Source of the DNA: Deltaproteobacteria bacterium
GTDB taxonomy: Bacteria > Myxococcota_A > UBA796 > GCA-2862545
Length of the DNA: 51,987 nt
NCBI GenBank assembly: GCA_011376105.1
Contig: DRPG01000318.1
Coordinates: forward strand, 1 to 51,987
Direction of reading: 5' to 3'
Below, piece by piece: positions 1 through 10,047 of this stretch. The translations under genes and the position numbers were made by a program. Position 1 is the first letter of the stretch; each line of letters begins with the position of its first letter. Under the pieces are notes generated by a model. The model searched no databases. It was not told the origin of the DNA and saw only the letters and a program-made list of their open reading frames with translations.

Positions 1-297
1 CGGATCGCCGAGCTCGAGGGCCGGGTCGCCAGCGCCGAGGTGATCGACGTGACCAAGCTCCCGGCCAACGATCGGGTCGTGTTCGGGGTCACGGTGAAGA
101 TCGAGAACTCGGACTCCGGTGAAGAGCGCACCTGGCGCATCGTCGGGGAAGACGAGGCCGACGTCGAGCTGGGGAAGATCAGCTACAAGTCCCCCCTGGG
201 GCGCGCCCTGATCGGGTGCCGCGAGGGGGACGAGGCCGAGGTGCCCGCCCCGAGCGGAAAGCAGACCTGGGAAGTCGTCGAAGTCTCCTACCGATGA
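1..297 (+). CDS. greA: Transcription elongation factor GreA, C-terminal part (5' end lies upstream of the window)
   Basis: Frame 1 is open from nt 1. The tail ...GKISYKSPLGRALIGCREGDEAEVPAPSGKQTWEVVEVSY matches the GreA/GreB C-terminal domain pattern (S.SP.G.AL.G...GD). Stop TGA at 295-297. Confidence 0.85.
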   Translation, partial: RIAELEGRVASAEVIDVTKLPANDRVVFGVTVKIENSDSGEERTWRIVGEDEADVELGKISYKSPLGRALIGCREGDEAEVPAPSGKQTWEVVEVSYR

Positions 298-2876
298 CAC
301 ACCCGGCCGGCGCCTCCACGACCCCAGCGGAGCCGCCGCTGCCGCTGGCCGAGCTGGATCGAGCGCTGCGGCCCGTCCGTCGGGTGATCCGATACGCGAT
401 GATGCCCGGCGCCCGCGCCCGCTTCGTCGAGCGCAACACCGCACGTCACCTCGACGGGGCCCTGGCCCTGGATCTGCCCAGGGCCCTGCGCGAGGATCTG
501 GCGTCGGTCGCCGCCGGGCTCGCGGGCTTCGACGCTGCCCCCGAGGTCGAGCAGCGCACCCGGCTGTCCGAGGTCTACGCCGGCCTGGCCCGGGTGGACG
601 CCGTCGCGGGCCTGCCGCTGCCGATGAGGCGGCTCAAGCCCATCTCCAAGCCGATCCAGCGCGACGTGCCCGAGCCGCCTGAGCCCAGCGCGCCCGCTGC
701 GTCCACGGCGCCCGCCAAGGACCCACCGCCGGCCGGAGACGATGCACCGCCGAGGCCCCCCGACGACGCCTTGTCTCCCCCGGACGAGCCCGGGGGAGAC
801 AAGGCCCCGGAGCCCGTCCAGATCCGACCGTCGACGCCGCTGAGCGAGCTCGATCCAGCCCTGGGCGAGGCCCTGGCCCAGCACGGGCTGACCACGGTCG
901 CAGATCTGCTCGGGCTCCGCCCCGCGGCCTGGGAGACCCTCGAGATCCATGGCGCCGGGCGGCCCCCGCCGCAGCGGCGGGTGGCCCTGGGGGGGCGCCT
1001 GAGCGGTGGGTGGTGGGTCCTGTCCCCCTCGGGAGAGCGTCGTCGCCGTTCTCGCCTGGTGGGTGCCGCCGCGGTCCAGATCCAGTGGGCATCCGAGGCG
1101 GTGGCGCCCTGGCTGGAGCTCGATCGGAAGGTGGTGATCGTCGGCGACGTGCTCAGCGATGGCCTCGTCGCTGAGGCTGAGATCGTGGTGGGGGAGGGCT
1201 CGGTGGTGCACCTGCCGCGCTACGAGCTGCAGGAGATCGAAGATCGTGCGCTGCGGGCCCTGGTGACGGTGTGCTCGGAGAGGCTGGGGCCAGTGCGGGA
1301 TCCCGTCTCGAGCGAGCTGCTCAAGCGCCTCTCGCTCCCACCCCGGGGCGACGCCCTGATCGGCGTGCACCGCCGGGATCCACAGGCCCGCTGCCGCCTT
1401 GCCTTCGACGAGGCGCTGTTGGTCCAGCTCGCCGGGGCCCTGCCCCGGGCCCGCGGGCCCCGGAAGCGGGGGCTGCCTCACCATGTGGTGCATGGCTTCG
1501 CTGGCCACATCAGCCAGACCCTGGGGCTGATCCTCGACGATGATCAGCAGCGCTGCTTCGAGGACGTGAAGCGGGAGCTGCGCAGGGCGGTGCCCATGCG
1601 CCGGGTGATCACCGGAGAGGTCGGGGCGGGCAAGGGTGCCGTCGCCCTGATGGCCACCGCCACGGTGGTGGAGGGGCGCGCCCAGGTGCTGGTGCTGGCC
1701 GACGACGACGCCGGGGCCGCGACACGGTTCCTGCACAGCGAGCAGGTCCTCCGGGAGGGGGGCATGATCTGCAGGCTGGTGCAGTCGCCCCCCACCGGAT
1801 CCCAGCGTGACGCGATCCGGCGCGGGGAGGTCCACGTCGTCTTTGGCAGCCTGGAGCTGCTCGAGCACGAGCTGGCGTTCCGTCGGCTGGGGCTGGTGGT
1901 GGCGATCGAGCGAGAGCGGTGGGGGCACGCGAGCCAACTCCACGCCCAACTCCCCGCTCCGCTCCCCGATCTGCTCGTGCTGACCTCGGTGCCCGTCGGC
2001 CCCCGCCTGTTGATGACGGCGTATGCCGATCACGACGTGAGCGTGCTGACGGATCGCCTGCGCAGGCCCGCGAGCATCACCCTGTGCCACGCCGATCAGC
2101 GCGCGGAGGCCTACGCAAAGCTCCGGCGGGTGGTGGAGCAGGGGCACCAGGCCATCGTGGTGTTCCCGATGGTCCGGGGCAAGGATCCCCTCGACGCCAG
2201 GGAGGCCCTGCGCATGGTGCGTGCCCTCGAGGCGGACGCCCTGGCGGGGATGTCGGTGGGCCTGTTCCATGGCTCGATGCCCGCCGACGAGCGCCAACGG
2301 GTGTACGAGGACTTCTCCCACCGTCGCCTCCAGGTGCTGGTCTGCACGACCCGGATCGAGGAGGGCCCCAAACCCCCAGGGGTCGCGGTGTTGGTGGTCG
2401 AGCAGGCCGAGTCGGTGGATGCCTGGCGGCTACATCGCCTGATCGGCTTCCTCTCCCGCAGCGCCGTGCCCTCGGAGGCGATCCTCGTCTCCGGGGATCT
2501 GGCCTCGGAGGAGGCCAAGGCCCGGCTGCTGCAGCTGCAGGAGGCCCCGAGCGGCACGGCCCTGACCGAGGCCCTGGTGGCGCAGCGCGGGGTGGAGCAG
2601 GTGGTCGCGGACGGCGTCCCACCGCTGCCCCAGCTGACCTGGCTGGATCTCGATCAGGATCTGAGCTTGGTCCTGAGCGCCCGGGACGAAGCCGCTCGCC
2701 TGTTGGGAGCTGATCCCGGCCTCCGCCGGGGCGCCCACGCCGAGATCGCGCGGGAGCTGTTCGAGCGCTGGGAGGAGCTGTGGCCCGAGGCGCCCCGATC
2801 CTGGGCGCCGCCCCGGCTGGAGGAGCCAGGGGAGCCAGGGCGCAAGCGTCGCCGCCGCCGTCGCCGTCGCCGGTAG
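294..2876 (+). CDS. RecG-like superfamily-2 helicase homologue with degenerate catalytic motifs and a poly-Arg C-terminus
   Basis: ATG at 294 overlaps the greA stop (ATGA). It is collinear with RecG: an OB/wedge-like region, then two RecA-like lobes (...VVFPMVRGKD..., GLFHGSMPADERQRVYEDFSHRRLQVLVCTTRIEEG). Motif I reads GEVGAGKG, the motif II position reads IERER, and the motif VI position reads HRLIGFLSRS. The protein ends RKRRRRRRRRR. Confidence 0.7.
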   Translation: MTHPAGASTTPAEPPLPLAELDRALRPVRRVIRYAMMPGARARFVERNTARHLDGALALDLPRALREDLASVAAGLAGFDAAPEVEQRTRLSEVYAGLARVDAVAGLPLPMRRLKPISKPIQRDVPEPPEPSAPAASTAPAKDPPPAGDDAPPRPPDDALSPPDEPGGDKAPEPVQIRPSTPLSELDPALGEALAQHGLTTVADLLGLRPAAWETLEIHGAGRPPPQRRVALGGRLSGGWWVLSPSGERRRRSRLVGAAAVQIQWASEAVAPWLELDRKVVIVGDVLSDGLVAEAEIVVGEGSVVHLPRYELQEIEDRALRALVTVCSERLGPVRDPVSSELLKRLSLPPRGDALIGVHRRDPQARCRLAFDEALLVQLAGALPRARGPRKRGLPHHVVHGFAGHISQTLGLILDDDQQRCFEDVKRELRRAVPMRRVITGEVGAGKGAVALMATATVVEGRAQVLVLADDDAGAATRFLHSEQVLREGGMICRLVQSPPTGSQRDAIRRGEVHVVFGSLELLEHELAFRRLGLVVAIERERWGHASQLHAQLPAPLPDLLVLTSVPVGPRLLMTAYADHDVSVLTDRLRRPASITLCHADQRAEAYAKLRRVVEQGHQAIVVFPMVRGKDPLDAREALRMVRALEADALAGMSVGLFHGSMPADERQRVYEDFSHRRLQVLVCTTRIEEGPKPPGVAVLVVEQAESVDAWRLHRLIGFLSRSAVPSEAILVSGDLASEEAKARLLQLQEAPSGTALTEALVAQRGVEQVVADGVPPLPQLTWLDLDQDLSLVLSARDEAARLLGADPGLRRGAHAEIARELFERWEELWPEAPRSWAPPRLEEPGEPGRKRRRRRRRRR

Positions 2877-2912: not shown

Positions 2913-4070
2913 TCACATCTGGAGCACCAGGCCCGCCACGAAGAGGAAGATCAACAACATGAACGCCAGCAGGCCGATGACGTTGCCCGCGGTGGGGCCC
3001 CGCTGAAGCTCGAAGACCACGCTGGCCCGCTCCCCCCGCTCGGTCTCGATGGTGACCACGCCGGCGGTGGCCTCGTCGGTCAGGGCGCCCCGGTCGAGGC
3101 GGACCAGGATCTGCTGCTCTGCTGCGGAGGGATCGAGCTGATCAGGGGTGACGATCAGCCAGGGCACGTCTGCCTCGGCGCGGCCTCCCATCGATCCTGT
3201 GCCGCCGTTGCGGAGCTGGATCGTGGCCTCAGCCGGATCCGCCCGGAGGGACAGGGTGCGCACAGGATCCCCGAGCAGCTCCAGCCGGGAGACCCCACCG
3301 GGGGCCTCCAGCCGGGGCTGGGTGGGGCGCACCGTCTCCCGGGTGCGGGCGGGGGGGCCGGTGCGGGCGGTGGTGAGATCGTAGTGTCGGCGGGACTCCT
3401 CGTTCGACAGCACCTCCTTTGCGAGGGCGAGGCGCTCTCGCTCAGGATCGCCGGGCTGGAGCTCGGCGATCCGGTGCCCGTAGGCGTCCACCACCTCGAC
3501 GGGGGTGGCCCGGGGATCGACCCCGAGGAGCTTGTAGAGATCCTGGCTGCTCGGTGCGTGGCTCAGGGGATCTCCCTCCAGCGAGATCTGCATCTCGTCG
3601 GCGATGCGCTCCAGCACCTCCCGGAAGGTCTCCTCGCTGACTCCGAGCGAGAGCGCGTTGTGGCGGAGGTAGGCCTCCTGCTGCGCCCCGAGCCCGCCCC
3701 CGGCGAGGACACCCCGCACGGTCATCTCCAGGACAGGCAGGTGCTCGGACTCCGTGCGCCGTCGGACGTCTCGTAGGTAGGCCGGGCCGTCCTCGAGCAC
3801 CGTGCTGAGGCTGGAGAAGTGCTTGATGAGGAACAGCGCCTCGCGGCGGTACTTCGGGTTGGCCTGCATCCCCTGCATAAACTTCCTGCGGGACTTGAGC
3901 TTGGCTCGAGCCTCTGCAGGATCGACCTCCTCGGTGAGGCCAAGGTAGGTGAGCAGGTGGGGGGCTCCCACCAGCTCACAGAACGCTGCGGCGTTGTCGA
4001 GGTCGCGTAGTTCCATCTGTCGCCTGGCCGGGGACTCGTGTTTGTATCGAGCCTGGGGCGCATCGGTCAA
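2913..4070 (-). CDS. Tail-anchored membrane protein with a J-domain-like segment lacking the HPD motif
   Basis: DLYKLLGVDPRATPVEVVDAYGHRIAELQPGDPERERLALAKEVLSNEESRRHYD follows the J-domain helix II/III pattern, but the HPD position reads QPGD. A beta-rich middle region follows. The extreme C-terminus is one hydrophobic helix (NVIGLLAFMLLIFLFVAGLVLQM). Last gene of the Hsp70 cluster. Confidence 0.6.
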   Translation of the reverse strand: MTDAPQARYKHESPARRQMELRDLDNAAAFCELVGAPHLLTYLGLTEEVDPAEARAKLKSRRKFMQGMQANPKYRREALFLIKHFSSLSTVLEDGPAYLRDVRRRTESEHLPVLEMTVRGVLAGGGLGAQQEAYLRHNALSLGVSEETFREVLERIADEMQISLEGDPLSHAPSSQDLYKLLGVDPRATPVEVVDAYGHRIAELQPGDPERERLALAKEVLSNEESRRHYDLTTARTGPPARTRETVRPTQPRLEAPGGVSRLELLGDPVRTLSLRADPAEATIQLRNGGTGSMGGRAEADVPWLIVTPDQLDPSAAEQQILVRLDRGALTDEATAGVVTIETERGERASVVFELQRGPTAGNVIGLLAFMLLIFLFVAGLVLQM

Positions 4071-4278: not shown

Positions 4279-5958
4279 TCAGTCGACCACCATCCGGCTG
4301 GTGCGGCCCCGGGCGAGGGCGACCTCCTCAGCGGTCATGCCGCCCTGGAAGCGGATGTCGATCCCCTCTCGACCTCCGGTCTCCACGTCGATCACCTGGA
4401 CCTTGAGGATCTGGTTGACGCCGTAGCTGTAGACCACATCGATCCGGGTGCCCCGTGGACGCGGCGGCAGCCCGGTGAGCTCGACCTGGCCGATGACCGT
4501 GACCTCGTCCCGGAAGCTGCCGGAGCCCTCGGTGACCTCGATCCGCACCGCGGTCATGTTCTCGAAGGCGTAGGCGAACTGGTGCTTGATCTCGTGGGGC
4601 AGCTTGGTGCCCTCGGGGATCAGCTCAAACACACGCTCCTGACGGGACTTGTTCAGGACGATGATCCCCAGCGGGTGGGTGGTGGCGTCCTCGATGGTGA
4701 CGTCGGGGAGCCCTCCGGTGGCACCATCGCCCACCGCGTCCTGGGCGACGTGGCCGCCGTAGGCCAGGCCGATCACCGCCCCCCGGGGGCTGGGCCTGGG
4801 CTCCACGGGGGGCTTGGGCCTAGGCTTGCGGAGCTCCTTGGCGCGATCCACCATCGCCCGGCGCTTCTCCCGCAGGGCGGGGTGATCGGGGCGGTGGCGG
4901 AACACACCCGCCAGCGACGCACCCAGGGCGACGCACTCCTCGGGGTTCACGTCCTCGGCGGGCTCCCGACCTGAGAGGTTGGTGAGCATCCTCCGGATCA
5001 TCGGCATCCGGGTGGAGCCCCCGACAAGCAAGACATCGTCGAGCTGATCCCAGGTCAGGCCGGCCTTCTCGAGCACGATGTTCGAGGTATCCTCGCACTG
5101 TTGCACCAGATCGGCGGTGATCTGCTCGAACAGATCGCGGGTGACCTTGACCGCCAGCCGCTTGCCCCGGTAATTCACCGGGACCACCGCACGTTCCTTG
5201 GTGGACAGGCAGATCTTGGCGTGCAGGCAGCGCTCATACAGCTCCTGGTAGGGCGCTGCGTCGTCGCGGGGATCGAGCTGGTACTTCTCGAAGAACTGCT
5301 CAGCGACGTAGTTGAGCAGCCGATCGTCCCAGTCTTTGCCGCCCAGCTCAGCGTTGCCGTCGCTGGCGATGGTCGACAGCTTGGTGCCCCGGATCTCCAT
5401 CACGGTCACGTCGAAGGTGCCGCCTCCGAGATCGAGCACCAGCAGCTTGCGCTGGCCCCCGATCCGATCGAGGCCATAGGCGATGGCAGCGGCGGTGGGC
5501 TCGTTGATGATCGACAGCACGTTGAGCCCGGCGATGGTGCCGGCCTCGGCGGTGGCGCCGCGCTGGGCTGAGTGGAAGTAGGCGGGCACGGTGATCACCG
5601 CGTCGACCACCGGACGCCCCAGCAGCTCCTCGGCGTCTTCCTTGAGCTTGCGCAGGATCAGGGCCGAGATCTCCTGCGGGGTGTAGGAGTGCCCGAAGAA
5701 CTCCAGCGTGAAGTCCTCCTCCCCCATGTGGCGCTTGATGAAGCGGACCACGTTCTCAGGATCGATGACCACCATCTTGACGGCCTCTTCCCCGACCACG
5801 CAGACGTTGCTGCCGTAGAAGTGGACCACCGACGGGGTCGTGGCGAAGCCCTCCCCGTTGGGCACGATCTCGGGCTTGCCGTGGTTGTTGACCAGCGCCA
5901 TCGCTGAGAAGGTGGTGCCCAGATCGATGCCGAGGACGATCTGGCTGTCATCCGACAT
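4279..5958 (-). CDS. Hsp70-family ATPase, short form without helical lid (NBD plus beta-sandwich substrate-binding domain only)
   Basis: Hsp70 signatures present: [56 protein letters not shown] Pro/Arg-rich insert ([20 protein letters not shown]) precedes the SBD-beta. The protein ends right after SBD-beta, at 559 aa. Confidence 0.9.
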
Positions 5959-5960
5959 GA

Positions 5961-6467
5961 TCAGGCCTTCCTGCCACGGTACCGCAGGATGATGACCTCC
6001 TCGGGGCGGAGCGGCTTCTGAGCCCGGGAGAAGCCCCGCTTGAGGACCTGGGAGATGCTGTAGTCTGCCTGCTCGTCGTCGGTCTCGTCGACCTTGACCG
6101 CCCGGTGCAGGGTGCGATCGAACCGCTCACACGCCTCGACGGGCACGACGTCGCGCCGGTACAGCACCTCGAGGAACTCGTCGATGAGGTACTGGAAGCT
6201 GTCGGCGATCACGTCCGGGGACATCTCCTGCTTGATCAGGCTCTCCTGGAACCAGTTCATCGAGTCGTAGAACAACAGCAGGTCGAGCAGCAGGGGCTTC
6301 TCTGCCTGAAAGAGGAAGTCCTCCTTGTACTGGCGCAGCTCTTCGTAGAGCTGATCGAACGCTTTCTCCCGGACCTTGTCGTTGTTCAGACGATCGTTGA
6401 CCATCTTCTGCATCTCGCCTACTTCGTGGGCGAGCCTGCGCATGGCGTCGGTGGTGGATTCGGTCAC
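5961..6467 (-). CDS. Minimal GrpE-like nucleotide-exchange factor
   Basis: The C-terminal pattern ...VVPVEACERFDRTLHRAVKVDETDD...ISQVLKRGF..QKPLRPEEVIIL resembles the GrpE beta-domain (FDP..H.A....V...GY....LRPA.V.V). The start is uncertain: GTG at 6467 with GAGG 9 nt upstream, or ATG at 6443. The track's 6602 start would overlap the upstream gene by 119 nt and its N-terminus looks out-of-frame. The stop lies 2 nt before the next Hsp70 start. Confidence 0.6.
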   Translation of the reverse strand: MTESTTDAMRRLAHEVGEMQKMVNDRLNNDKVREKAFDQLYEELRQYKEDFLFQAEKPLLLDLLLFYDSMNWFQESLIKQEMSPDVIADSFQYLIDEFLEVLYRRDVVPVEACERFDRTLHRAVKVDETDDEQADYSISQVLKRGFSRAQKPLRPEEVIILRYRGRKA

Positions 6468-6483
6468 TACAACGAGCCTCGGA

Positions 6484-8490
6484 TCAGTCTGACGGGGCAC
6501 CGAGTTCGGTGGCCAGGTTGATGAAGGTGCCCTCGAGCTCGAGGGATTCATTGCAGAAGTGGAAGTCGCTCGGCCCGCTCGCCAGCGAGGAGAGGAACCC
6601 ACGCTGGACCTGATCGCCGACCCCGACGGTGATCACCCGGGCGCCCATCGCCCTCAGCTCGTGGACCTGCTTGAGCGTGGCCTCTGGATCGTCGGGGTGC
6701 CCATCGGTCATCACGACGAAGACCCGCTGGATGCCGGCCTTGGGCTTGAGCAGGTTGCGGGCGTCGTACAGGCCCTCCGACATGGGGGTGGAGCCGATGG
6801 GGGTCAGCGAGTCGATCGCCCACCGGAGCCGATCGAGGTTAGCGGTGAGGGTGGACTTGACGCCCCCAGGGAAGGCGACGACCGCCACCTGGCGGTTGGC
6901 CGACTCCAGCGTGTGGTGCACGAACGACAGCGCAGCCTTCTTGGCGTTCTCGATGTTGGCGCCGTACATCGAGCCCGAGCAGTCCACCACCAAGACCACC
7001 CACATCGGCGCGCGGTTGTTGGCGAGATCCTCCAGCGTGACGTGGCCTCCGGCGAGGCGGTGGGGCAGGATCTGGCCGGTCTCCAGATCCATGGCCTCGA
7101 CCTCGACGATCCCGTTGCTGTTGTAGCGGTAGGTGACCGCCAGCCTCGCCTGGCCTGCGGGCCTCGGCGCGATCCCGTAGAACTCGAAGTGCCCCAGCAC
7201 CGAGCACTTCAGGGGATCGGGATCCTCGCCCTGGACCAGCCACAGATCGATGGTGGCCTGGCCGTCGTAGGTGGTGGAGTAGTCGTCGCGGGTCTTCTCA
7301 GCGGGGATCCGGGTGTTCTTGCTGATGATCTTCGAGTTGTGCAGCTGCTTGTCGCGATAGACCACCATCCCGAGGGAGTGGGAGGTGACGTCGTGGGTCC
7401 GGATGTCGACCGGCGAGGCCTCCCCCGACAGCTCAGCGGCCTCGATGGCGGCGGTGAGCGCAGCACCCAGGGCCACGGCCTCGTCGGGGTTGATGTCGGT
7501 GGCGGGGGGCTTGCCAAAGGTGTTGTGCAGCATCTCCCGGACCATCGGCATCCGGGTGGAGCCTCCGGCGAGCAACACCACGTCGATGCTCTCGAAGCTG
7601 GCGCTGGCCTCCTGGACCACCGAGCGGGTCAGCACCTCGGTGCGCGACAGCAGATCCTCGGTGAGCTCCTCGAAGGTCTCCCGGCTGATGGCCAGCCGCA
7701 TGACCTTGTCGCCATAGTCGTGGAAGATGTTGACCTTGGGCCTGCGGGTGAGGCTGATCTTCGCCGACACACACTTCTGGCGTAGATCATGGTAGCTCGA
7801 CAGCTCCTCGAGGGGATCGACGCCGTGCTTCTCCTTGAATGCGGCGGCGACGTGGTGGATCAGACGATCGTCCCAGTCCTTGCCCCCCAGCAGGTGATCG
7901 CCGTCGGTGGCGATGACGTTGATCTCCTTGTCGGCGATGTCGACCAGGGTCACGTCGAAGGTGCCACCCCCGAGATCGAAGACCAGCACCCGGAGGTTCT
8001 GGCCCGCGTTGTTCAGCCCATAGGCGAAGGCTGCGGCGGTGGGCTCGTTGATGAGCTTGAGCACCTTCAGCCCAGCCAGCTCACCCGCCCGCAGGGTGGC
8101 GCGGCGCTGGATGTCGTTGAAGTAGGCAGGCACGGTGATCACGGCCTGATCGATCCGCTGGCCCAGCCTCAGCTCGGCGTCACCCTTGAGCTTCTGCAGG
8201 ATGATCGCAGAGAGCTGCTCGGGGTTGTAGTCCTTGCCCCGGAAGGTGAACCGGTATGAGTCGTCACCCATGTGGCGCTTGACGAACTCCACCACCTGCT
8301 CGGGGTGGGCCACCGCAGCATGCTTGGCGTAGCTGCCCACTGAGATGACGTCGTCTTCAAACAGCAGGACGCTCGGTGTGATCCGATCGCCCTCCGCGTT
8401 GGGCAGAACCTCAGGGACACCGTGCTGGTTGACGTATGCGATGGCCGAGAAGGTGGTCCCGAGGTCGATCCCGACCGCACCGATTGCCAT
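6484..8490 (-). CDS. Hsp70-family ATPase fused to a C-terminal von Willebrand factor A (vWA) domain
   Basis: ATG at 8490 is preceded by AGGAGG. NBD motifs: [58 protein letters not shown]-beta follows. The last 175 aa or so read VVLVVDCSGSM...IGSTPMSEGL...VVMTDGHPDD, i.e. MIDAS D-x-S-x-S...T...D. Confidence 0.85.
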   Translation of the reverse strand: MAIGAVGIDLGTTFSAIAYVNQHGVPEVLPNAEGDRITPSVLLFEDDVISVGSYAKHAAVAHPEQVVEFVKRHMGDDSYRFTFRGKDYNPEQLSAIILQKLKGDAELRLGQRIDQAVITVPAYFNDIQRRATLRAGELAGLKVLKLINEPTAAAFAYGLNNAGQNLRVLVFDLGGGTFDVTLVDIADKEINVIATDGDHLLGGKDWDDRLIHHVAAAFKEKHGVDPLEELSSYHDLRQKCVSAKISLTRRPKVNIFHDYGDKVMRLAISRETFEELTEDLLSRTEVLTRSVVQEASASFESIDVVLLAGGSTRMPMVREMLHNTFGKPPATDINPDEAVALGAALTAAIEAAELSGEASPVDIRTHDVTSHSLGMVVYRDKQLHNSKIISKNTRIPAEKTRDDYSTTYDGQATIDLWLVQGEDPDPLKCSVLGHFEFYGIAPRPAGQARLAVTYRYNSNGIVEVEAMDLETGQILPHRLAGGHVTLEDLANNRAPMWVVLVVDCSGSMYGANIENAKKAALSFVHHTLESANRQVAVVAFPGGVKSTLTANLDRLRWAIDSLTPIGSTPMSEGLYDARNLLKPKAGIQRVFVVMTDGHPDDPEATLKQVHELRAMGARVITVGVGDQVQRGFLSSLASGPSDFHFCNESLELEGTFINLATELGAPSD

Positions 8491-8501
8491 GTAGGGTGCC
8501 T

Positions 8502-8546
8502 CCTGTGGGCCACGGACTTCGGAGTGGTGAGCGAAGGGCCCACAGG
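8502..8546 (-). promoter_or_regulatory. Leader hairpin (or palindromic operator) abutting the Shine-Dalgarno of the Hsp70-vWA gene
   Basis: A 10-bp perfect inverted repeat: CCTGTGGGCC (8502-8511) and GGCCCACAGG (8537-8546). There is an inner 5-bp stem (8517-8521 with 8532-8536). In the mRNA the 3' arm ends in ...CAGG, which forms the first half of the AGGAGG SD (8499-8504). Confidence 0.35.
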
Positions 8547-8609
8547 TCCGACGGGGTGGGGTGGAGTATATCGGAGGCGCGTGCCACAACAAACCCGAGG
8601 GTAGCGCCG

Positions 8610-9203
8610 ATGCACGAGCTGATCTTGGCCTCCACCAGCCCCTATCGGCGCCGCATGCTGAAAGATGCAGGACTACTGGTCAGGAGCGAGGCGCCGGGAG
8701 TCGACGAAGATGCACCCGACGAGATGACGGATGTGGTCGCCCTCGTGGAGCACCTGGCGTTGCGCAAGGCGCGCGCGGTCTCCGATCGGTTTCCCGGGGC
8801 GTGGGTGATCGGCGCAGATCAGCTCGCCCATGATCGCGATCGTCCAGGTGAGGCGATCGGCAAGCCCCCTGATCCCAGCGTCCACCTGGAGCGGCTGGCG
8901 GCGATGCGGGGTCGGTCCCACGTGTTGGTCACCGGCTTCGCGGTGATCACCCCCGGGCAGGTGCACGTCTCCCACGAGCAGACGGTGATGCATGTGCGCG
9001 CCGATCTGACGGACGAGGAGCTGGCCGCCTATGTCGCGACGGGGGAGGGCAGCGGCTGTGCCGCAGGCTATGCGGTGGAGGGCCGGGGCGCGTTCCTGTT
9101 CGATCGGATCGAAGGAGACTTCTTCAACGTCATGGGGTTGCCCCTGCTGACGATCCTCGGGGTGCTGCGAGAGCTGGGGTGGAGGTTCGGCGATGGGCTC
9201 TGA
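8610..9203 (+). CDS. maf: Maf-like nucleoside triphosphate pyrophosphatase
   Basis: [17 protein letters not shown]...PGVDE...VIGADQ...GKP...[39 protein letters not shown] is the typical Maf family pattern. The ATG at 8610 was chosen over the long upstream extension in the track. Confidence 0.85.
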   Translation: [197 protein letters not shown]

Positions 9204-10047
9204 TCCCGCCAGGGAGCTCGCAGAGTTGGTGGCCGACGCCCGGGCCCTGGCCGAAGACGCCCGGGATCGGGGGGTGCTACACGAGGCCCTCGACGCCTCT
9301 CCGGAGGTCACCGAGGCCCCCGGGGCCCCGCCGGCGGGGGCCCGGGCCTCCACCGCAGCCTCCGGGGCCACGCCCGCCCCCCCAGCGCGCTCGACACCAC
9401 AGACCAAGGCGCCCGCCCCCCGGCCGGCCCATGCGGGGTGGTCCGCGCTGGCCTCGTCGGCGCGGGACGCGGAGCTGCCCGCCCCGCTGCGGCTCGAGAG
9501 GGTCCGCGGGGAGCTGGGGGACTGCAGGCGCTGTGCCCTGGCCCGGGGGCGAAAACAGATCGTGTTTGGGGTCGGTAGCCCGCAGGCGGATCTCGTGGTG
9601 ATCGGGGAAGCCCCTGGGTACCACGAAGATCAGCAGGGGGAGCCGTTCGTGGGCCCCGCCGGCCAGATGCTCGATCGCATGCTCGAGAACGTGCTCGGGC
9701 TGGCACGATCCCAGGTCTACATCCTCAACATGGTCAAGTGCCGGCCCCCCCGGAACCGAAACCCGCTGCCCGAGGAGGTGTCGTCCTGTCGACCCTTCCT
9801 CGACGGCCAGCTCTCGGTGATCGCCCCGAGGGTGATGTTGGTGCTCGGCAGCGTCGCGTTCCGGGCCCTGTTCGACACTCAGCAGGGCATCAAGCGCAAC
9901 CGTGGGCGGTGGCGCGAGTACCGCGGGGTGCCGACGATGTCCACCTTCCACCCGGCCTACCTGCTGCGGCAGCCTCAGGACAAGCGGCTGACCTTCGAGG
10001 ATCTCCAGGTGCTGAAGCGCCGCTACGAGGAGCTGACCGGGGGCTAA
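9193..10047 (+). CDS. Uracil-DNA glycosylase, family 4, with a low-complexity N-terminal extension
   Basis: C..C.L...R...VFG.G...ADLVVIGEAPGYHEDQQGEPFVGPAGQMLDRML, KCRPP.NR.P and HPAYLLR are family-4 UDG motifs. The start overlaps the maf stop. Confidence 0.85.
   Translation: MGSDPARELAELVADARALAEDARDRGVLHEALDASPEVTEAPGAPPAGARASTAASGATPAPPARSTPQTKAPAPRPAHAGWSALASSARDAELPAPLRLERVRGELGDCRRCALARGRKQIVFGVGSPQADLVVIGEAPGYHEDQQGEPFVGPAGQMLDRMLENVLGLARSQVYILNMVKCRPPRNRNPLPEEVSSCRPFLDGQLSVIAPRVMLVLGSVAFRALFDTQQGIKRNRGRWREYRGVPTMSTFHPAYLLRQPQDKRLTFEDLQVLKRRYEELTGG

Follow-up and report, generated by a model that had tools for sequence, protein, structure and literature searches.

Hsp70 chaperones are usually seen as generalists: J-proteins confer specificity on them, and a helical lid determines how long a substrate stays bound. 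Specialised pairs occur as well, e.g. Ssz1-Zuo1 of the yeast ribosome-associated complex (RAC), HscC-DjlC of Escherichia coli and the mitochondrial PAM motor with the HPD-less Pam16, the membrane protein Pam18 and Mge1. In these pairs, truncated or lidless Hsp70s cooperate with an exchange factor of GrpE type and with J or J-like proteins of their own, some of which are anchored in the membrane. None of them is known to carry a von Willebrand factor A (vWA) domain with a metal ion-dependent adhesion site (MIDAS). MoxR-type AAA+ ATPases are paired with vWA proteins in RavA-ViaA, CbbQ-CbbO, NorQ-NorD, CoxD-CoxE and BchI-BchD, and also in the Bat operon. The subject here is a gene of a Deltaproteobacteria bacterium (GTDB lineage Myxococcota_A; UBA796; GCA-2862545) that encodes an Hsp70 with the helical lid replaced by a vWA domain, an architecture that is real and far beyond chance. 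The gene is located on contig DRPG01000318.1 (GenBank assembly GCA_011376105.1), of which positions 1 to 51,987 were analysed; this stretch is referred to as the window, and coordinates are given in its numbering.

Hsp70s in multi-component systems have been described computationally. The second theme of the GAP1-N2 systems comprises HSP70 and GrpE, sometimes a second HSP70 devoid of a peptide-binding domain, and a DnaJ- or TPR-fused FNIII protein (PMC7159879). A vWA domain fused to HSP70 goes unmentioned in the text of that paper. A survey of the Hsp70s of Myxococcus xanthus makes no mention of vWA (PMC8265645). In the CoCoNuT paper, Hsp70-like and TerY-vWA genes share an operon, and the architecture is different. 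Full-text literature searches yielded no description of an Hsp70-vWA fusion.

The fusion gene (6484–8490, minus strand) is the first gene of an operon and encodes 668 amino acids followed by a stop codon, as identified by open reading frame (ORF), Pfam and homologues. The mechanically called ORF spans 6484–8592 and opens at a TTG at 8592. The true start is the ATG at 8490: all 30 aligned homologues begin at the corresponding position, and a Shine-Dalgarno sequence, AGGAGG, is located 8 nt upstream. With a G+C content of 65–75% in the window, many long ORFs in other frames are expected by-products and were ignored. Scans of the window for promoters and terminators, tRNAs and Rfam families were uninformative.

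The protein consists of an Hsp70 ATPase domain, a substrate-binding domain beta (SBD-beta) and, in the lid position, a connector of 13 residues with the vWA domain, all read from the minus strand. The nucleotide-binding domain (NBD; residues 1–355, 7426–8490) has intact catalytic motifs in a structure alignment with DnaK. The interdomain linker and the SBD-beta (residues 356–482, 7045–7425) were aligned to DnaK 4rtf. In the translation, the connector HVTLEDLANNRAP follows (residues 483–495, 7006–7044), with a helix of a single turn at the expected start of lid helix A. The vWA domain (residues 496–668, 6487–7005) was identified by Pfam, by sequence matches in the PDB, and by AlphaFold with Foldseek. 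The Hsp70 part matches the Pfam profile HSP70 with E=3e-135, covering the profile only to position 490 of 599. Residues 4–482 align to Mycobacterium tuberculosis DnaK (4rtf) and the alignment ends at chain residue 510, the last strand of the SBD-beta; the SBD-alpha helical lid is therefore absent. The canonical DnaK equivalogs of NCBIfam failed, with 447.6 bits against a cutoff of 648 for NF001413 and 440.7 against 822.55 bits for TIGR02350. The DnaK/HscA matches of NCBIfam, below the equivalog cutoffs, end at about model position 487 of 625. The tail scores with Pfam VWA at E=5.6e-18, exceeding the gathering cutoff. VWA_2 passes its cutoff with 47.7 versus 27 bits, while VWA_3 (30.5 versus 27 bits) and VWA_CoxE (27.8 versus 26.4 bits) pass narrowly. 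Scores against the vWA regions of cobaltochelatase and BchD were obtained with NCBIfam as well.

Structure prediction gave a consistent picture. The full-length AlphaFold model (pLDDT 83, pTM 0.70) comprises SBD-beta strands between residues 373 and 480, a one-turn helix at 486–490 and then a six-stranded alpha/beta domain. Its best matches in the PDB are ATP-state structures of DnaK and BiP (Foldseek E~1e-50), and NBD and SBD-beta are 36–41% identical to DnaK chains in the best Foldseek structural alignments. A model of residues 430–668 from a diverse alignment reached a pLDDT of 90.9. It matched the vWA domains of CMG2/ANTXR2, BatB, TRAP and PTMP1 and integrin I domains in the PDB (E 2e-13 to 1e-10), and a PDB sequence search with the tail found the same families. 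The protein thus belongs to the Hsp70 superfamily (PF00012) by an NBD with phosphate-binding and catalytic motifs and by its SBD-beta, and to the vWA proteins by a Rossmann-like alpha/beta fold with a complete DxSxS...T...D. The hydrophobic pocket of the SBD-beta retains hydrophobic residues (I401 to M, F426 to Y, V436 to I and I438 to L; DnaK numbering, 4rtf alignment); the assignment of these positions is read from the alignment and rests on the established structure of DnaK. The interdomain linker reads VDIRTHDV where DnaK has DVLLLDV. In DnaK, the hydrophobic VLLL linker couples NBD and SBD. No signal peptide was found and the NBD begins at residue 4, which places the vWA domain in the cytoplasm.

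The complete MIDAS comprises D503-C-S505-G-S507 (6970–6984), T568 in PIGSTPM (6787–6789) and D596 in MTDGHPDD (6703–6705), all on the minus strand and read from the translation. These residues and the ATPase motifs are invariant across 30 homologues of 67–86% identity. In alignments of distant tails and of full-length proteins, the aspartate and both serines of DxSxS are invariant or nearly so; among the distant tails, T568 is nearly invariant and D596 invariant. Most of the DxSxS, T and TDG positions are preserved in 46 distant fusions, whose full-length sequences are about 25–46% identical to one another. The tails of 45 of them (the protein of the window excluded) are about 25–55% identical to that of the window. 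Mean identities to the window are 72% for the NBD, 79% for the SBD-beta, 79% for the connector and 68% for the vWA domain, with the SBD-beta as the most conserved part of the protein. The similar values of vWA domain and NBD, together with the conserved connector, argue for a fixed geometry and for selection on the tail. Judged by these identities, purifying selection acts on the tail about as strongly as on the NBD.

The initial annotation had proposed that a vWA domain with a complete MIDAS is grafted onto an Hsp70 in place of the lid. The strings it quoted from the tail were reproduced exactly by translating 6484–7011 (minus strand), which reads APMWVVLVVDCSGSMYG...PIGSTPMSEG...VFVVMTDGHPDD...ATELGAPSD-stop and forms the C-terminus of one long ORF. 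Pfam, PDB sequence search and AlphaFold with Foldseek agree on vWA and MIDAS, and the profile and fold searches named as a check returned vWA and no other fold. The wording "in place of the lid" is accurate, as the DnaK alignment ends at the SBD-beta and only 13 residues precede the vWA domain. Conservation of the MIDAS among orthologues, the second check named there, was borne out by the 30 invariant homologues and by its predominant retention in the distant fusions. The comparison with MoxR-type systems was apt: the tail scores against the vWA families of CoxE, cobaltochelatase and BchD, which are partners of AAA+ ATPases.

At least 120 homologues were found in a search of 5.8 billion proteins. 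They are 67–100% identical, about 666 amino acids long and carry both domains without exception. Their names are limited to "Hsp70 family protein", "VWA domain-containing protein" and "DnaK" or "molecular chaperone DnaK". A HMMER search with the SBD-beta and vWA tail in 1.84 billion cluster representatives retrieved 836 proteins at E<=1e-10. Among the best 150 matches, 45 are full-length proteins (657–736 amino acids) with NBD, SBD-beta and vWA, and further fragments carry SBD-beta and vWA. The architecture is present in at least 45 distinct clusters at 50% identity. When each GTDB species was represented by one genome, a scan with a four-sequence alignment of the tail as query located the close family in at least 134 genomes. 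The best 80 of these, all uncultured metagenome-assembled genomes (MAGs) of Myxococcota type, supplied the related loci L010–L089. Seven MAG records (L011, L012, L024, L028, L057, L080 and L084) have organism labels that look like placeholders or errors, namely "Klebsiella pneumoniae", "uncultured Enterobacteriaceae" and "Bifidobacterium breve". In some Hsp70 relatives that score high on the fusion profile, such as P0330 and P0332, the C-terminal domain is not PF00092 VWA but another one, for example PF21523, or PF00362 (integrin-beta-type VWA) with PF25106. No plasmid record covers 80% or more of the SBD-beta and vWA tail. The architecture had initially been called unusual. With at least 45 clusters, 134 species-level genomes and fixed partner genes, it is no oddity of this genome, and "unusual" is better read as "uncharacterised" than as "rare". 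The other C-terminal domains of relatives such as P0330 and P0332 hint that the lid position may be a hotspot of domain swapping.

The operon on the minus strand opens with the Hsp70-vWA fusion and continues with GrpE, another lidless Hsp70 and a J-like protein that is anchored in the membrane and has no HPD. The second gene (5961–6473, minus strand) encodes a short GrpE-like nucleotide exchange factor of about 160–170 amino acids, starting at GTG 6473 or ATG 6443. It matches Pfam GrpE with E=1.9e-13 over profile positions 8–163 of 165. The second Hsp70 (4279–5958, minus strand; 559 amino acids) is matched by Pfam HSP70 in two stretches (E=1.9e-120) and has an intact NBD and an SBD-beta, and no lid. 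NBD and SBD-beta are separated by a low-complexity linker of about 75 residues, rich in proline, arginine and glycine, which varies in length and sequence among relatives. The C-terminus consists of a conserved helix and an alternating-hydrophobic tail (...RMVVD; elsewhere ...RMDVE, ...ANIN, ...ASIT and ...ANIH). A conserved acidic C-terminus as ligand of a MIDAS or TPR was considered and rejected, as the last residue varies (D/E/N/T/H/R). A neighbour-joining tree of the NBDs, calculated with regard to an ancient pairing of both Hsp70s, was unresolved overall.

The fourth gene (2913–4016, minus strand) encodes a tail-anchored J-like protein of 367 amino acids from ATG 4016, recognised by Pfam DnaJ, DjlA similarity and a C-terminal transmembrane helix. 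A QGMQxNPKY domain is followed by a DjlA-like region, the J-like domain, a beta-rich region and the transmembrane helix. The Pfam DnaJ match (E=2e-5) is below the gathering score; the similarity to DjlA has an E-value of 6e-5. The J-like domain (3320–3490, minus strand) reads AYGHRIAELQPGDPE at the HPD site, that is QPGD (...AELQPGD...) and no HPD. The N-terminal domain of about 100 residues (3700–4016, minus strand), RRKFMQGMQANPKYRREALFLIK, contains the invariant motif R..Q(G)xQxNPK(Y/F)..A, conserved across 54 sequences; the homologues were drawn from the 55 loci within L010–L089 that have the J-like gene. Its assignment as a second J-like domain was unsupported, with a best E-value of 0.06 in PDB profile and Pfam scans (CCT delta, probably by chance). 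The beta-rich region yielded a weak match to BACON_2 (E=0.028) and none to FNIII. The protein of the window terminates right after the transmembrane helix, while relatives add an extracytoplasmic part of about 150–200 amino acids. In the region beyond it (216–2912), a gene for a helicase-like protein of 886 amino acids (216–2876, plus strand; Helicase_C E=5e-9) is convergent and adjoins the operon. A gene for a protein with tetratricopeptide repeats (TPR) and Zincin_1 is absent from the window and its closest relatives, although many relatives have it downstream. Three of the closest relatives were compared at this position: L011 and L013 have neither the J-like nor the TPR gene, and L012 has the J-like gene without the TPR gene. 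The flanking genes are of housekeeping type: GreA, the helicase, Maf, uracil-DNA glycosylase (UDG) and an S1-domain protein. No MoxR-type AAA+ gene was found among the genes of the operon or the flanking genes of the window.

The partner genes are shared by the related loci. GrpE is located directly 3' of the fusion gene in 79 of the 80 loci. The second Hsp70 adjoins the fusion in 74 loci; in the other six, no more than about 540 bp separate the fusion gene from the contig end. A J-like gene was found in 55/80 and a TPR+Zincin_1 gene in 43/80 loci, and most absences coincide with contig ends. Upstream, maf is adjacent in 74 of 80 loci. In the window and in most loci, maf and a family-4-type udg (8616–10047, plus strand) are directly upstream and divergent from the operon; maf is on the strand of the operon in a minority. 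The operon occupies one conserved chromosomal position in 74–80 of the 80 species loci, where maf, udg and the S1-domain gene are its syntenic neighbours, and in relatives tgt, queA, yajC and secDF then follow. Identities across the 80 loci are 65–90% for the fusion protein, 39–65% for Maf and 27–74% for UDG. By this gene order and conservation, the operon is syntenic, vertically conserved and fixed in the chromosome of a Myxococcota lineage.

In most distant loci with sufficiently long contigs, the trio of fusion, second Hsp70 and GrpE is retained in another gene order. Most of these distant loci have GrpE near the fusion, on either side of it; one contig (L004) ends in an unidentified gene just after GrpE, too early to show the second Hsp70. 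Large accessory proteins are encoded in the distant loci: TPR/Sel1 proteins, transmembrane proteins that carry SH3_3 and PEGA, J-domain proteins combined with CBM96/NPCBM modules, and a BNR/sortilin propeller. In a Lentisphaerae-labelled locus (L090; fusion protein P0328), three further HSP70-family genes, one of them encoding an NBD only, precede the fusion gene. It is followed by genes for a double-zinc-ribbon (DZR) protein, a DO-GTPase2 (29 bits, above cutoff), GAP1-N2 (E=3e-14) and a second DO-GTPase-like protein. Precomputed Fn3 matches of the DZR protein were faint and were not recovered by a Pfam scan. No GrpE was called in the 20 kb of this locus. The fusion of L090 lies inside a GAP1-N2-type GTPase-centric system. 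A TraG/TrwB-type coupling protein of type IV secretion systems is encoded next to the cluster (723–2435 of L090), which suggests that this version may reside on a mobile element. At the sensitivity that one exemplar of each allows, tblastn with the DO-GTPase2, GAP1-N2 and DZR-Fn3 proteins of L090 matched nothing in the window (52 kb), nor in 91 further loci, among them all 80 of the close family. The operon of the window therefore shares the chaperone module of the GAP1-N2 systems and fails their defining features.

The function that we favour, at about even probability, is that of an adaptor-bearing subunit in a dedicated multi-component Hsp70 machine, as opposed to a general stress chaperone. 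The fusion would be an Hsp70-driven counterpart of the MoxR-vWA pairs at the inner membrane. We infer that a divalent cation is bound in the MIDAS and serves to catch an Asp or Glu carboxylate on a particular partner or client protein, while the SBD-beta may grip an adjacent extended segment of the target. ATP binding and hydrolysis and the exchange by GrpE would shift the SBD-beta and the rigidly attached vWA domain relative to the NBD. By this movement, the bound protein would be loaded, remodelled or released. The Hsp70 would play the part that MoxR/AAA+ ATPases have in CbbQO, NorQD, BchID and RavA-ViaA. Ligand capture, as already proposed in the initial annotation, would come under the control of the Hsp70 nucleotide cycle. 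Through the tail-anchored J-like protein, the machine would be positioned on the cytoplasmic side of the inner membrane, and the extracytoplasmic domains that relatives of this protein carry suggest a link to the envelope. The module may represent the HSP70/GrpE/DnaJ part of GAP1-N2 DO-GTPase systems minus the GTPase and GAP1, fixed in the chromosome as a cellular function.

Several observations weigh against this proposal. A DxSxS-like motif is missing in 9 of 54 three-domain representatives, truncated fragments included, so not every member of the wider family has MIDAS chemistry. No ligand of the MIDAS was identified, and all family members are from uncultured organisms. The link to GTPase systems is based on one inspected locus, L090. 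The interdomain linker is DIRTH and not VLLL and varies in distant homologues. R167 of DnaK is replaced by lysine or serine. J-like homologues in L001–L003 and L092 have no HPD either, and from these sequences the whole system appears to use an HPD-less J-like partner. In view of the linker, the partner and the exchange at R167, an allosteric cycle of DnaK style is not to be assumed, and the control is probably non-canonical.

More tentative, and with a lesser though appreciable chance of being right, is an extension of the proposal. Hsp70-vWA, second Hsp70, GrpE and HPD-less J-like protein may constitute a new class of Hsp70 machine, in which the MIDAS, and not a lid, would give a specific, metal-dependent grip on one dedicated target at the inner membrane, equivalent to Rea1/Midasin and the MoxR-vWA systems. 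This machine may have arisen in GTPase-centred conflict systems and may have been domesticated later, to serve an uncultured Myxococcota lineage as a vertically inherited core function.

A rather unlikely alternative, which overlaps with the favoured adaptor function and does not exclude it, regards the vWA domain as an assembly or pairing module. The MIDAS would bind an acidic residue of the second Hsp70, the J-like or the TPR protein, resulting in a stable hetero-oligomer or a cytoskeleton-like assembly whose state is regulated by the nucleotide cycle. Such a pairing would agree with the co-occurrence of fusion and second Hsp70 wherever contigs allow, and in a rough neighbour-joining tree the paired NBDs of two distant systems are mutual nearest relatives; the tree as a whole, however, was not resolved. 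The conserved alternating-hydrophobic tail of the second Hsp70 could dock on a partner, but its last residue is not consistently acidic and a conserved acidic ligand was not identified.

The operon may also be a conflict or immunity module, with vWA and SBD-beta sensing peptides of an invader and the Hsp70s setting the threshold of the response. We consider this quite unlikely. P0328 is embedded in a cluster with three Hsp70-family genes, the DZR protein, DO-GTPase2, GAP1-N2 and a TraG/TrwB neighbour. The variable extracytoplasmic SH3, PEGA, CBM96 and NPCBM domains of distant partners correspond to the sensor pattern described for conflict systems (PMC7159879). In the lineage of the window, however, neither tblastn with the L090 proteins nor the flanking genes revealed a GTPase, GAP1 or recognisable effector, and none of the four operon proteins matched any family of PADLOC-DB v2. 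The fixed position among housekeeping genes and a conservation exceeding that of the neighbours are the opposite of sporadic, fast-evolving defence islands. An ordinary stress chaperone or an artefact by mis-assembly, a mis-called ORF or a neutral fusion without functional link is highly improbable: the databases do label members plainly as Hsp70 family protein or molecular chaperone DnaK, but the equivalog score of 448 bits against 648 speaks against this reading, and it is effectively refuted by the number of homologues, the invariant motifs, an uninterrupted frame of 665–670 amino acids that recurs in independently assembled genomes of at least 134 species, and a tail conserved by selection comparable to that on the NBD.

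If the adaptor function is correct, the exchange of the lid for a MIDAS adaptor would make specificity a property of the Hsp70. Partnerships between ATPase engines and vWA adaptors would then reach beyond AAA+ proteins to the actin-fold Hsp70s. Point mutants of the MIDAS offer a testable entry into multi-Hsp70 modules that have so far been predicted only computationally. The module appears to have left a mobile setting centred on a GTPase and to have become an operon with a fixed place in the chromosome.

Compared with canonical DnaK-DnaJ-GrpE, the system shares NBD and SBD-beta at 36–41% identity, a GrpE and intact ATPase motifs. It differs in the missing SBD-alpha lid, in the linker (DIRTH versus VLLL), in a J partner without HPD and in an equivalog score of 448 versus 648 bits. 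Lidless Hsp70s with a dedicated membrane J-like protein and GrpE may be likened to RAC, HscC and PAM. With the MoxR-vWA pairs, the fusion has in common a cytoplasmic, MIDAS-complete vWA domain coupled to an ATP-driven engine, and BatB is among the top fold matches. Accessory proteins with TPR and SH3 domains, known from the Bat operon, occur with the fusion in relatives and distant loci. Unlike in the MoxR-vWA pairs, an Hsp70 takes the place of the AAA+ hexamer as engine and is joined covalently to the vWA domain; the comparison is one of working principle, not of membership.

The closest described system is the HSP70/GrpE theme of GAP1-N2 (Kaur, Burroughs, Iyer and Aravind, 2020, eLife 9:e52696; PMC7159879), with which the gene set agrees in an HSP70, a GrpE dedicated to it, another HSP70 that is truncated, and a protein with a DnaJ-type domain. 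TPR proteins and transmembrane proteins with SH3 or PEGA domains are further shared features. In contrast to this theme, the second Hsp70 of the window loses only the lid and keeps the SBD-beta. Its operon is syntenic and vertically conserved instead of sporadic, and no GTPase, GAP1 or DZR-Fn3 match was obtained. The locus is best filed as a known module of multiple Hsp70s, GrpE and J-like protein, described only computationally, in a new, fixed form without GTPase, whose lidless Hsp70 carries a covalent MIDAS adaptor.

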